Positions 23,472-59,981 of a stretch of 64,000 nucleotides of DNA are shown here, piece after piece (position 1 is the first letter of the stretch; each line of letters begins with the position of its first letter). The DNA lies in the IMG/VR virus record IMGVR_UViG_2851976983_000001, positions 1-64,000 of that record. The stretch is one strand, 5' to 3'. The notes below the pieces were generated by a model. That model was given only the letters and a program-made list of their open reading frames with translations. It ran no database searches and was not told the DNA's origin. Made by a program: the position numbers and the translations under genes. This DNA is from a virus. Taxonomy: Duplodnaviria; Heunggongvirae; Uroviricota; Caudoviricetes.

Positions 23472-24908
23472 CTATTGCACCGTTCGTGACAATAGCAACG
23501 TTTGTTCCTGAATAGCCTTCAACTCATCTTTTAAGGACTTGAAGGTAGACTTACTGGATACCAAGTTATCTTCGTGTCTGGCGATAAGAGCAATAAACGG
23601 ATTAATCTCTTTTGATATACGATCGACCTCAGTACGAGCACGAGTCACAAGAGACTCAATAGCAACAACCTCCTTCTCACGATGACGCAAAGATGAGAGT
23701 TGTTTCGTAAGCTCTTCAATCCGGGCAATGATAGCCGTTACATCAGGTGTCGTTTTAACAAGGGCAGACTCAATGCTTAACGCTTTCTCAAGATTCGTTT
23801 TGTGTTTAGCCATTGCCTCTGCAAGTGTCTTCGCCTGACCAATTTCCTGACGTGCTTGTTCAATGAAATTCTCCTTCACCGTTGATAGATCTTCTTCGCA
23901 GTAGGCTTTGCCACAAGTAGGGCATGGTGATCCCACTTTAGTACCAACCTCTTCTGCTTTGGTCTTAAAATTACGCGCGCGGTTCATTGCATCAGCCTGA
24001 CTATTTTCTGTAGCTTTGATGCTTGCCCGAATATCAGTTATCGCACCACGAACTTTGAGCAACTTGGCGTCATGTTCTTCTTTTGAGGCTAACTTTTTGC
24101 GCTCACTTTCGATTGCCTTCTCTGTATCACGTATCTGTTCGGGAAGAGTGCGGATCTCAAGTTCAACTTCCGTTAACTCAACTTCGGCACTGGCCAGCCC
24201 AGCCAGGGCATCGTCATAACGTTTAGAACGCTCTTGCTCCCATGATTCAGAGGAGGCTTTCGCTGACTCAATTTCTGACTGTGTTGCCTCAATGGTCGAG
24301 ATTGTCGACTCCAATTTGGTTTTAACCACATCCATACGTGCGGCAGCTGCATTAGCTCGCTCACGAGCAATAGCGTAGGCGCGTGTCAGTCTGTCAACGC
24401 CAGCGGCTTCTTCTACGATGGTTTTGAGGTTTTTGTCGGACATTCCAGGTAAATCTGGCATAGCTTCTTGGCTCGCATAGATGGAAGCCATGAAAACCTC
24501 TTTAGATGCACCGATCAGACGCTCGACGAACTCCTGCGTCAGCGCATCTTTGCCTTTCGTCATATCGCCATCTTCACCACGAACGATAAGACGATTTTTG
24601 AACTCTTTGTGTTTACGGTGACGAATGATTGCGTATCTCTTGCCTTCATCCTCGATGGTTACTGCAACACGACAGTTCTTTTCATGGTCGGTAGACAACA
24701 CATCGTCACCCTTCACACCATGAGCTGTTTCGCCATAAAGACACCACATCAGGCTATTCATTAGAGTTGACTTTCCAGAGCCATTACTTGATGCGGAACT
24801 ATCATCACTATTAACACCCTGAATGAGCACTAAACCACGCTGATCTAACTCGACCTCCGCGCTGGCGATAGCCATAAAATTCTCAACCTGGAGCTTTAAA
24901 AACTTCAT
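23472..24908 (-). pseudogene. SbcC/Rad50-like (T4 gp46-like) ATPase, 3'-truncated by the IS
   Basis: N-terminal Walker A (NGSGKST), coiled coil, zinc hook CPTCG; no C-terminal signature, Walker B or H-loop; reading frame runs about 6 codons into the IS end before a stop. Confidence 0.7.
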
Positions 24909-25137
24909 ATAACACCTCTGATACCGTGTGTTAGCTTTTGGCCTTCTTTCAATCTGAACTCCGTATGCGCCGGGAAGGATCTGCGCCTCAATACGCCTTT
25001 TCTTGTTAACCTTCCAAGATAAAACGCTACGGGATTTCCTTGTGGCGGGTAGGGCTTGTGAAACATCACCGTCTGGCCTCGTTCAAGTCTTTTCATCGTG
25101 ATGGCAAAGTCTCGAAAGCTCCCATAACGACTTTGCT

Positions 25138-26223
25138 TCACACAGCCTCCGAACTCTCCGCTTCGGTGAGGATTTCCTGACACAAAATATCCAATTTGCT
25201 CAGATCAAATCCGCCGTCAGTATCGTGGACAATCTTGCAATAAGCAGATACCGACTCTCCCAGGCTATCGATTTTGCTGGTTTCAGTTGTGCTGGCTGTC
25301 CCTTCCATCATTGATGACTTACGGATGAAGTTGCACACGACACCTTTTGCACCCATTGTTTTGAGGATGTTCTGGTACTTAATGCCTTCTTCATCGTTCT
25401 CAATTACGGCGCGGAAACGCACGTAGTTGCCGCGAATTTGGTCATCAGCAACATCATCTTCCAGGTTAATGAATTTAGGCGCACTGGTTTCGTAGTGACT
25501 GAAACTGCCGTCCGGGTTTACGATCATGTAGCCAGCCAGAGATCCAACATCTCCCCAATTTTGATGAGTCAGTGCACCGACACTGATAACTCCAGGAATG
25601 ACCTCTTTGTGGTTGTGGTAATGCCCACTAAGCACGAGACGAAAGCCGATATCCTTTAACTCCAGCGCATCGATACCGACGTCAGGCATTGTTGGAATGG
25701 CTTTGTTAATGGATGTATGGATAACAACGTCATGATTATCACCTTCTACGCTCTTACGTAATGCTTTCAGATCGCTGATAAGCTCCGCATGATTGTTACG
25801 CCAGCTAATCAGGTGGACAGTCACATCACCAATTTTTATTGAGTGTGGGCGCTTGCCACATACGATTACCACGCCGATAGAACTCAGCGATGCTGCTGCG
25901 TTGGCGCTATATACTGAATCGTTGGTTTCAAGATCGTGATTACCGGCCAGCATTACTACTGTCAGATCAAGCTCGTTGATAATCCACTTGTACGTTTCAG
26001 TTACGTAATGCAAAACAGAAGGGGACACAGTTCCTCGGACGTGAAATGTATCACCGGCAACCAACATGTACGTACAACCGGCCTTCTTCATGGCGATGGC
26101 TGCTTCTTTCGTTGCTTCCAACTGTATTTCAAGTCTGGAGTTAAGCCCCTCAGCGTTCGTCGTGGAGAACGCATCCCATTTGTGGTAGTGGCAGTCAGAA
26201 ATGACGCCGTATGGCAAAGTCAT
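25138..26223 (-). CDS. SbcD/Mre11-like metallophosphoesterase (T4 gp47-like)
   Basis: Motifs GDTFH, GNHD, SGHYH; start preceded by GGAAAAACAC-ATG motif. Confidence 0.8.
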   Translation of the reverse strand: MTLPYGVISDCHYHKWDAFSTTNAEGLNSRLEIQLEATKEAAIAMKKAGCTYMLVAGDTFHVRGTVSPSVLHYVTETYKWIINELDLTVVMLAGNHDLETNDSVYSANAAASLSSIGVVIVCGKRPHSIKIGDVTVHLISWRNNHAELISDLKALRKSVEGDNHDVVIHTSINKAIPTMPDVGIDALELKDIGFRLVLSGHYHNHKEVIPGVISVGALTHQNWGDVGSLAGYMIVNPDGSFSHYETSAPKFINLEDDVADDQIRGNYVRFRAVIENDEEGIKYQNILKTMGAKGVVCNFIRKSSMMEGTASTTETSKIDSLGESVSAYCKIVHDTDGGFDLSKLDILCQEILTEAESSEAV

Positions 26224-58562: not shown

Positions 58563-58640
58563 TTTTTCTTTTGTGGTTTGGCAAAAGAAAAGTTGTTTCA
58601 CCAATGAATCAAGCGTGGAGGTGTTCTCCACGCTTATTTT

Positions 58641-59981
58641 TTAGGTAACGTCTAAGATTCGCTCAATGAAGCGCATTTGTTCGAGTTTTTGTTTAACGCG
58701 AATGCTGATCCCTCCCTGCTGGTTACGTGAACCAGCAAAGTAGAGACGAGCCTCTCCTTTCGCTTCTTCTTCTTCGGTTTTGTTGATCGTTATTACCAGG
58801 TCAGCAATACGTACTTTTTCGATGTTGTCGGCGGCGTGCATCATTGTGGCAACTTCTGACGCGCCACCTTCACGGTTTGTCTGCGATGCCGTGATTCCAG
58901 CAACGTTATGTTTGTCATAAAGAGCACGTAAATCGGTGTAGATACTACGAATGTTGGCGCGATCATCACGAAGGTCATAACTGGCACGCATCAAATCTGC
59001 GTAGTCGACAACAACCATGTCAGGCACCATGCCGTTGGCTTTCATGCTGTTAAGCATACGGTCCAGATCTGCCGGTGACATACTTCCTGACGGACGCTCA
59101 ACCACCCACAAACTACCAATCCCCTTCGTGGCTCCCAACTCTGCCAACTTACGATGAACCTCATCGCGCCGTTCCACCAGCTTGGACATTTCCGTCTCCG
59201 ACAATCTTGCATCAAAACGGTCGGATAAAATGGTAGTGTGAACCTCCAGCGAGAGATACAGAACATTGTAGCCAGCAAGCGTTGCGTTTATGGAAAACTC
59301 ACCCATTGCGGTCGATTTACCGGATTTAGCGAACCCCATGAAGAGCACCATTTCACGCTTCGCCCAGCCTTTTTGGTACAGCAACCTATCGAGCAGAGGG
59401 AGTCCAGTTGTAATGCTGTTTGGCACATACTCCTCTGAAGCCTCATATTCACGCGCTTTCAATCGCTCACTTGCGGAGGTGTAGTAGTCATAGATTCCGG
59501 TCGCTTCGTTCGATCCAATCTGCTGAACCTTGGCCATGATTGCCATCGCCCCCTGAAAGTCGCCTTTCTCTTTCAGTTCAGCAGCCTTAATCAGAGCATC
59601 ATCAAACGCTACGCTTTTTGCGAAGGTTGATACCTGGTCAACCATGTACGAGGTATCGGACAATTTTTCTGCAAGGATGCGCTTAAACGCAGCAACAACA
59701 TCGGCGAATAGTTCCTCACGGATAGTCTTATCGCGTTTCGCACGCTTAAGCATATCCAGAATTGCAGATGAAGAGGGCGCGCTCTTGTACATACGGTAAT
59801 AGCCCGAAACCATATTAACCAATATGGCATTGGCCGCATTGGCAAATTGGCTAGGCACAACCAGATCTCCCGCACGAGTAAGAAACTCGTGATCACGACA
59901 AAAATATGCCGTCAGTCTGTTCTGGAAATCTTCATCAAACTCTTCGGACAGCCCGCGTCCTGTATGGCAAAGTTCGGTCAT
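58641..59981 (-). CDS. DnaB-family replicative DNA helicase
   Basis: Walker A GFAKSGKST, Walker B VVVDYADLM, ITASQTNR motif; 446 aa. Confidence 0.8.
   Translation of the reverse strand: MTELCHTGRGLSEEFDEDFQNRLTAYFCRDHEFLTRAGDLVVPSQFANAANAILVNMVSGYYRMYKSAPSSSAILDMLKRAKRDKTIREELFADVVAAFKRILAEKLSDTSYMVDQVSTFAKSVAFDDALIKAAELKEKGDFQGAMAIMAKVQQIGSNEATGIYDYYTSASERLKAREYEASEEYVPNSITTGLPLLDRLLYQKGWAKREMVLFMGFAKSGKSTAMGEFSINATLAGYNVLYLSLEVHTTILSDRFDARLSETEMSKLVERRDEVHRKLAELGATKGIGSLWVVERPSGSMSPADLDRMLNSMKANGMVPDMVVVDYADLMRASYDLRDDRANIRSIYTDLRALYDKHNVAGITASQTNREGGASEVATMMHAADNIEKVRIADLVITINKTEEEEAKGEARLYFAGSRNQQGGISIRVKQKLEQMRFIERILDVT

Follow-up and report, generated by a model that had tools for sequence, protein, structure and literature searches.

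A decayed relative of pHCM2 and SSU5: the replication and maintenance half of a probable phage-plasmid in Escherichia coli

A stretch of viral DNA that encodes replication enzymes of its own and also carries a plasmid replicon raises the question of what kind of element it belongs to, and whether that element is still a phage. The window analysed here is the whole 64,000-nucleotide stretch formed by positions 1 to 64,000 of the IMG/VR record IMGVR_UViG_2851976983_000001. An earlier reading of the letters alone, hereafter the original prediction, had described a near-complete T4-like replisome and recombination gene set on an iteron plasmid replicon with ParA partition and a copy of the insertion sequence (IS) IS100, and had guessed at a phage-plasmid of the pHCM2/SSU5 type in an enterobacterial host. 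With a probability of about 0.9, we read the 23.4-64 kb stretch as that half of a siphovirus phage-plasmid of the pHCM2/SSU5 family in E. coli which serves replication, recombination and maintenance, and this copy of it as decayed.

The whole window was an exact substring of the circular plasmid p500465_152 (CP025897.1, 152,530 bp), lying on its minus strand and spanning the origin of the record; the source was E. coli from human stool in India. When positions 23472-47000 were used as a megablast query, 910 plasmid records matched. In 82 of these, most of them from E. coli and most at 96-98% identity, a single place contained 80% or more of the query. Plasmid records from Klebsiella, Salmonella and Yersinia showed lower identity, those of Yersinia making up 63 of the plasmid matches. 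Phage records matched as well. Escherichia phage Cyrano (OV696614.1) showed 97.7% identity at 91% coverage of the query, PhiR41_1 and CMS-2020a showed 95-96% identity, and Salmonella phage SSU5 (JQ965645.1) showed 79.7-86.6% identity across 56-66% of it. A second plasmid, p503829_100, was 99.99-100% identical to the corresponding parts of the window's replicon; in an ungapped comparison a 3-nt indel near 58773, inside the helicase gene, was the sole difference up to that point.

The family in question is already well described, and is known from Salmonella Typhi, E. coli including enterotoxigenic E. coli (ETEC), Klebsiella and Yersinia. The SSU5 supergroup and the SSU5_pHCM2 group were defined as siphovirus phage-plasmids with mostly IncFIB-type replicons (Pfeifer et al. 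2021, PMC7969092), pHCM2-family phage-like plasmids have been reported in ETEC (PMC8085198), and such phage-plasmids have been surveyed on a large scale among clinical isolates (bioRxiv 10.1101/2025.09.12.675607).

Gene order in pHCM2 of Salmonella Typhi CT18 (NC_003385.1) was unchanged through the whole region. Both elements hold, in the same order, the genes for an SPFH protein, RecA, a flap endonuclease, a gp32-like single-stranded DNA-binding protein (SSB), DnaE, CobS/CobT, a helix-turn-helix (HTH) regulator with an integrase, glutaredoxin, Gp49 and PhoH, followed by the ligase, a 350-aa opposite-strand open reading frame (ORF), the primase, the helicase and ParA, and both have a lambda-like siphovirus tail module. 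For the three genes compared, protein identity to pHCM2 was 94% (Pol III alpha), 98% (PhoH) and 82% (SSB). The guess at a pHCM2/SSU5-type phage-plasmid is thus borne out by the BLAST matches, the synteny and the 82-98% protein identity, and the enterobacterial host proved to be E. coli. The two elements differ in that pHCM2 keeps a 17.7-kb nrdAB-thyX-DHFR-dnaQ-dam block that is gone from the window copy, whereas the window element carries IS100, IS2 and IS3-family insertions together with hicAB, cspG and PD-T4-3-like cargo. Cyrano shares the replication and recombination gene set; unlike the window's element, it has an intact J gene, an intact tail-fibre gene, full-length SbcC and the nucleotide-metabolism block, and neither the PhoH block nor the 350-aa ORF is present in it.

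The virion genes lie outside the window, where the original prediction had proposed to look for them. On p503829_100, TerL and portal genes are annotated immediately upstream of window position 1, and after them come the genes for the major capsid protein, the tape measure protein and the lambda-like tail proteins M, L, K and I. Siphovirus structural, packaging and lysis genes are a mark of the SSU5_pHCM2 group, to which the TerL, portal, capsid and tail genes of this near-identical plasmid conform. TerL, portal, capsid and tail genes share the replicon, and the element is therefore not the chromosomal island without virion genes that would have spoken against the original prediction. Two of the virion genes are interrupted. 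An IS100 with an IS3-family element inserted in it divides the host-specificity gene J into parts of 557 and 1035 aa (1575 aa in Cyrano), and IS2 divides the tail-fibre gene into parts of 939 and 397 aa (1341 aa in Cyrano). The split region occupies 38809-52409 of NZ_CP025870.1, and an equivalent stretch is found in CP025897.1.

A further insertion lies within the window. The IS100 that had been noted there is a complete copy of this IS21-family element (1,954 bp, 21538-23491, minus strand), with istA at 22383-23405, istB at 21604-22386 (named by the Prokaryotic Genome Annotation Pipeline in NZ_CP025870.1) and imperfect terminal inverted repeats (TGTCAACGACGG... and ...CCGTTCGTGACA). Similarity to the intact plasmid CP088852.1 ends exactly at both borders of IS100, and the two flanks are ~17.7 kb apart there. 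The 5-bp flanks differ (GAACG vs ATAGC), and IS100 thus lacks a target-site duplication, consistent with either a deletion caused by the IS or its recombination with the second IS100 copy on the replicon. According to the intact CP088852.1, Cyrano and pHCM2, the missing block comprises the 3' quarter of sbcC, a RuvC-like gene, nrdA, nrdB, a MazG-like gene, thyX, a polynucleotide kinase (PNK)-like gene, a dihydrofolate reductase (DHFR) gene, an ATPase gene, the genes for a DnaQ-like 3'-5' exonuclease, a Dam methyltransferase and RNase H, TciA/B-like genes, and the 5' part of a DUF4942 gene. The DNA-metabolism kit can therefore not be called near-complete, as ~17.7 kb of such genes of intact relatives are missing at IS100. 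The junction was found in 1 of 5,426 complete RefSeq E. coli genomes, and in CP025897.1 within PLSDB. It was absent from phage isolates and confined to plasmids of two strains from one Indian village.

Both genes at the borders of the deletion survive as remnants. The 3' remnant of the DUF4942 gene, cut by IS100, occupies 20676-21537 (minus strand); the intact gene has 1,686 nt in CP088852.1 and Cyrano. The sbcC-like gene for a Rad50/SMC-type ATPase (23472-24908, minus strand; Pfam AAA_23, E 9.6e-17) runs in frame into IS100, inside which its last codons and stop lie. Its product has 478 aa and corresponds in the alignment to residues 1-478 of the pHCM2 protein, which like that of Cyrano has 638 aa; the C-terminal 160 residues are missing. 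In Rad50/SMC-type ATPases the C-terminal region forms the C-terminal half of the ATPase head. The sbcD-like gene for the metallophosphoesterase nuclease subunit is present (25138-26223, minus strand; Pfam Metallophos; SbcD in the Cyrano and pHCM2 annotations). Of the SbcCD-like nuclease that had been proposed, the sbcD part stands, and sbcC is left only as a truncated remnant.

These observations bear on whether the element remains intact and inducible, a temperate phage-plasmid able to produce infectious virions of the SSU5 kind. In favour of this, the terminase, portal, capsid and tape measure genes and most tail genes remain and hardly differ from their counterparts in Cyrano, and the core of polymerase, helicase, primase, SSB and ligase is undamaged. 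We nevertheless consider it very improbable. Insertion sequences interrupt both J and the tail-fibre gene; IS100 stands in place of ~17.7 kb including the DnaQ-like exonuclease gene, NrdAB and the 3' end of sbcC; and the rarity of the junction among E. coli genomes, together with its absence from phage isolates, also argues against an infectious form. With these two tail genes broken and the ~17.7 kb gone, the element has most likely ceased to be a phage and persists only as a plasmid. Production of infectious virions is predicted, from the state of these genes, to be lost in this copy.

The next question is how far the replication genes are T4-like. Forty ORFs were scanned with Pfam, with further searches of PHROGs, NCBIfam and PDB sequences, and every gene named in the original prediction was present at its place with support from hidden Markov models (HMMs) of Pfam, PHROGs or NCBIfam. 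The SSB (34203-35231, minus strand) belongs to the gp32 family (Pfam gp32, E 1.7e-66; phrog_1192, E 1e-115), and a direct phmmer search of this protein against PDB sequences matched nothing. The replicative helicase (58641-59981, minus strand; Pfam DnaB_C) is of the DnaB family and nearest to the T4 gp41 type: its best solved homologues were 8due, 8dtp and 8g0z (E 5.5e-12), which we take to be structures of the T4 gp41 primosome, compared with ~1e-3 for bacterial DnaB. The ATP-dependent DNA ligase (53443-54765, minus strand; Pfam DNA_ligase_A_M) was T4-ligase-like, with 6dt1, presumably T4 DNA ligase, as its best PDB match (E 1.6e-24). A DnaG/Toprim-type primase, with coordinates that follow the existing annotation, lies at 57378-58493 on the minus strand (phrog_47, E 3.3e-63; weak matches to Pfam Toprim_2 and DNAG_N), and a 5'-3' exonuclease or flap endonuclease lies at 33198-34193 on the same strand (Pfam 5_3_exonuc_N and 5_3_exonuc). 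The protein of 35349-35780 (minus strand) is a possible UvsY-like recombination mediator; it is annotated as UvsY in Cyrano and matched the UvsY-like phrog_231 (E 1.9e-4), and its best PHROG was phrog_2058, a family without a functional annotation.

The recombinase (357 aa, 31856-32929, minus strand; Pfam RecA, E 2.3e-42) matched bacterial RecA in the PDB at ~1e-34 and T4 UvsX at 1e-5; among PHROGs it matched phrog_97, labelled 'UvsX-like', at 1e-91. The 357-aa protein contains no intein, for which the RecA of Cyrano, with 779 aa, would have room. In several relatives a LAGLIDADG or Hint-domain gene is annotated in the recA region. Together these observations suggest that the presence of a recA intein varies within the family.

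The polymerase (37732-41250, minus strand) is a family-C, DnaE-type Pol III alpha with the Pfam PHP, core, finger and helix-hairpin-helix (HhH) domains. Its PDB matches were the Pol III alpha subunits of Thermus, Mycobacterium and E. coli (E 1e-109 to 1e-121), and its score lay below the NCBIfam cutoff for a DnaE equivalog (672 vs 1002 bits). Pfam, PDB and NCBIfam agreed on family C, and the enzyme is not a family-B polymerase of the gp43 type. Residues ~956-1172 (window 37732-38385) gave no Pfam domain at threshold and no match to an oligonucleotide-binding (OB) fold. For the C-terminal segment the only Pfam hint was to uracil-DNA glycosylase (UDG; E 0.018), and the NCBIfam model TIGR00758, which describes family-4 UDG, matched at E 2.4e-8. 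An NCBI fragment that includes this C-terminal region is named 'uracil-DNA glycosylase'. A homologue search for the domain returned 6 fragments, too few for a deep alignment. The AlphaFold model built from this 6-sequence alignment was of low confidence (predicted local distance difference test, pLDDT, 44.6; predicted template modelling score, pTM, 0.48), and a single-sequence model reached a pLDDT of only 34.5. All of the top 36 Foldseek matches to the former were UDG4 or UdgX proteins; the fold search was used only as corroboration of the HMM matches. A profile of the domain found nothing among PDB sequences. It therefore appears that the OB and tau-binding C-terminus has been replaced by a divergent family-4 UDG-like domain at residues ~1020-1172.

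A DnaE-UDG fusion is not new. Timinskas et al. 2014 (PMC3919608) already described such a polymerase, the 'DnaEX' variant, in Y. pestis and S. enterica; it has a PHP-Pol3-(HhH)2 core and a family-4 UDG domain instead of OB and the C-terminal domain. The Pfam core domains and UDG-like C-terminus of the window's polymerase show the same layout, and the Y. pestis and S. enterica cases of these authors are presumably the pMT1 and pHCM2 copies. A UDG-like domain in place of the tau-binding domain suggests that the polymerase is not coupled to the host clamp loader via tau.

Capture of a genuinely T4-like, Straboviridae-derived replisome by a plasmid would explain the gp32-family SSB, the helicase nearest to 8due/8dtp, the ligase nearest to 6dt1, and the UvsW-, UvsY- and PNK-like genes annotated in Cyrano. 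It is, in our estimate, even less probable than an intact phage-plasmid. T4 uses the family-B gp43, whereas the polymerase here is of family C; the recombinase is much nearer to bacterial RecA than to T4 UvsX; and the virion is of the lambda-like siphoviral kind (J, K, L, M, I), not myoviral. Moreover, neither a gp45 clamp nor a gp44/62 loader was found among the 40 Pfam-scanned ORFs or in the annotations of Cyrano, p503829_100 and pHCM2. What holds of the proposed T4-like replisome is its SSB, helicase and ligase; the polymerase and the lack of clamp and loader do not agree with it, and the recombinase, nearer to bacterial RecA by PDB score yet matching a 'UvsX-like' PHROG, gives a mixed picture. 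The replisome is best called a hybrid, T4-like in part only.

The plasmid side of the element is carried by an iteron replicon. The repA gene (27483-28538, plus strand) encodes a Rep3-type iteron-binding initiator of 351 aa (Pfam Rep3_N, E 5.3e-9), the same length as in Cyrano. A longer ORF from 27324 overlaps iterons and is probably an over-call, which leaves 27483 as the probable start. The iteron TATGCTGTCAGCGG, allowing at most 2 mismatches, occurred in 15 copies in the window vs 0.37 expected by chance; all were on the plus strand and all flanked repA, at 27323-27422 or 28539-29069. With this initiator and this excess of repeats, the iteron plasmid replicon of the original prediction stands. 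The upstream cluster (27302-27443, plus strand) has ~5 copies at a spacing of 21-22 bp, 3 of them within 2 mismatches, and is the probable origin and repA-operator region. The downstream array (28539-29069, plus strand) has 12 copies and, by analogy with incA of P1, is a probable copy-number control locus. The P1 RepA and F RepE iteron replicons are alike in having a Rep3-family initiator, an upstream cluster and a larger downstream array; the classical layout in P1 is incC-repA-incA.

RepA is only 50% identical to that of pHCM2. By MOB-suite/PLSDB, p503829_100 was typed as rep_cluster_488 and pHCM2 as IncFIB, so that the former falls outside IncFIB(pHCM2). The divergence of RepA and the differing replicon type fit the published pattern in which phage genes are conserved and plasmid genes vary (PMC7969092).

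ParA partition was likewise confirmed. The small Walker-type ParA (62227-62895, minus strand; Pfam AAA_31, MipZ, CbiA and ParA) forms a partition operon (61868-62895, minus strand) with a downstream 119-aa protein, the putative centromere-binding partner, which matched phrog_5111, a family without an annotated function. A chromosomal island or integrated prophage, to which the tyrosine integrase gene might point, is of negligible probability in view of the exact match to a circular plasmid record, the 910 plasmid matches, the RepA/iteron replicon with ParA, and the replicon types that PLSDB assigns.

Taken together, the gene content suggests a scheme with two states. In the plasmid state RepA would bind the ~14-20 bp iterons, and by analogy with P1 and F the upstream cluster would act as origin and auto-operator; handcuffing by the 12 downstream copies would keep the copy number in check, on the analogy of P1 incA. 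Theta replication would be carried out by host enzymes, ParA and its 119-aa partner would partition the copies, and the HicAB-like genes and the tyrosine recombinase, through multimer resolution, may add stability. In the lytic state of intact relatives, the element would replicate with its own DnaE-UDG polymerase, gp41-like helicase, Toprim primase and gp32-family SSB, while the flap nuclease and the T4-type ATP ligase would mature Okazaki fragments. RecA, the possible UvsY-like mediator, a UvsW-like helicase and SbcCD could then support recombination-dependent replication and the processing of concatemers, with glutaredoxin, NrdAB, ThyX and DHFR supplying deoxynucleotides.

The replicon to which the window belongs also appears to have been joined to a second plasmid. 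The record p500465_152 equals p503829_100 (100,470 bp) plus p503829_52 (p52; 52,054 bp), and the complete p52 sequence lies between two 100%-identical 1,332-bp IS2 copies in the tail-fibre gene (CP025897.1 44292-97680, with the IS2 copies at 44292-45623 and 96349-97680). This plasmid holds the Longus (CS21) type IV pilus cluster, fimbrial genes, SopAB, an IncFIB RepB and remnants of F tra. It carries one IS2, with the same transposase accession as the IS2 of the phage-plasmid. The summed length (152,524 vs 152,530 bp) and the fact that no additional IS copy is present agree with homologous recombination of one IS2 element with the other. In strain 500465, one other plasmid record was located besides the 152-kb one, the 79-kb p500465_79.

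A pHCM2-type phage-plasmid may here be turning into a virulence plasmid, through IS-inactivated tail genes, the 17.7-kb loss and the IS2 fusion to an ETEC Longus plasmid. We offer this tentatively, at slightly worse than even odds. If true, this would resemble the way in which pMT1 arose in Y. pestis. The cargo of pMT1 is caf1 and ymt. It thus differs from that of the window's replicon, which is instead apparently joined via IS2 to the Longus pilus plasmid; in both, a phage-plasmid backbone is linked to virulence cargo. pMT1/pFra is a member of the SSU5 supergroup (PMC7969092) and has the same DnaE-UDG polymerase (PMC3919608). P1-like phage-plasmids that turned into plasmids by gene loss have been described (PMC10879196), in a paper that does not mention SSU5.

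Several points count against the picture drawn so far. We infer the defectiveness from interrupted genes, and complementation by a co-resident helper or precise excision of the insertion sequences could make up for it. The division between host-driven theta replication as a plasmid and self-driven lytic replication is also one that we infer. PhoH and CobS/CobT have no assigned role in the proposed scheme, and the UvsY-like assignment is weak (E 1.9e-4). Centromere-like repeats were sought around parA, and none was convincing. Finally, a join of the two plasmids by the assembler at their shared IS2 fits the cointegrate equally well.

The remaining genes of the region lie around this backbone. 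At lower coordinates than recA, an SPFH/stomatin-like membrane protein is encoded at 30729-31559 (minus strand; Pfam Band_7, E 2.6e-30). On the plus strand follow a hicA/hicB-like toxin-antitoxin pair (36035-36259 and 36320-36883), with names from the Cyrano annotation and coordinates from p503829_100, and a cspG-like cold-shock gene (37035-37453). The HicB-like protein had no Pfam match. The cold-shock gene is annotated as cspG and has a complete cspA-type thermoregulator in its 5' untranslated region (Rfam RF01766, 185.7 bits); it is situated between hicAB and dnaE and resembles cargo acquired from a host. Beyond the polymerase gene come a CobS-like AAA+ ATPase of the MoxR type (41431-42666, minus strand; Pfam AAA_5), a CobT/VWA protein (42762-44870, minus strand; Pfam CobT and CobT_C), an HTH regulator (45433-45819, plus strand; weak Pfam HTH_19) and the tyrosine recombinase (45814-46917, minus strand; Pfam Phage_integrase). 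The block from glutaredoxin to PhoH (47129-48742, minus strand) contains glutaredoxin (47129-47377, Pfam) and PhoH (47969-48742; Pfam, E 1.5e-73), both on that strand, as well as a Gp49-family protein and a small crAss001_48-like protein (Pfam).

Two genes resemble known defence genes. The 262-aa protein of 48856-49644 (minus strand) has an N-terminal nuclease domain and is defence-effector-like by PADLOC, where it matched PDC-M68A (1.6e-23), a CBASS endonuclease effector (1e-20) and SduA (1.7e-16). A similarly sized gene occupies this position in pHCM2. The 255-aa protein of 61048-61815 (plus strand) matched the PADLOC model PDLC04031 (E 1.3e-23) over 221 of its 255 residues and Pfam LEM-3_GIY-YIG at 5.5e-7. 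As a single GIY-YIG protein it fits the PD-T4-3 model and is a candidate defence gene. It is situated in the variable region adjoining the partition genes.

In the locus 51046-53443, a tRNA-Asn (GTT) stands alone at 51794-51868 on the minus strand (ARAGORN and Rfam), and Cyrano has tRNA-Ser, tRNA-Thr and tRNA-Asn. Insertion of antimicrobial-resistance transposons near tRNA loci of the pHCM2/SSU5 family was described in a 2025 preprint. Between the primase gene and its neighbour lies the opposite-strand 350-aa ORF (56324-57376, plus strand), which matched phrog_22938 only and nothing in Pfam, PADLOC or NCBIfam. Its protein, WP_000209842.1, is identical in pHCM2 and p503829_100 despite differences in the proteins on either side, and at this site Cyrano shows no more than a 76-nt spacer. 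The ORF may be a mobile or selfish gene; its identification as a homing endonuclease found no support. In the first part of the window, a full-length methionyl-tRNA synthetase gene, metG (12037-14199, minus strand), and a gene for an ApbC/Mrp-like, MinD-like ATPase (14228-15328, plus strand) are both conserved in Cyrano.

The locus has value as a positive control, as a reading of the letters alone recognised a phage-plasmid correctly; the family itself was known and no new question is opened. For the biology of the family, it offers a small concrete case of how insertion sequences can deprive a phage-plasmid of phage functions and fuse it to a virulence plasmid. As such it bears on how surveillance types phage-plasmids that are defective or hybrid, and on the possible origin of plasmids such as pMT1.

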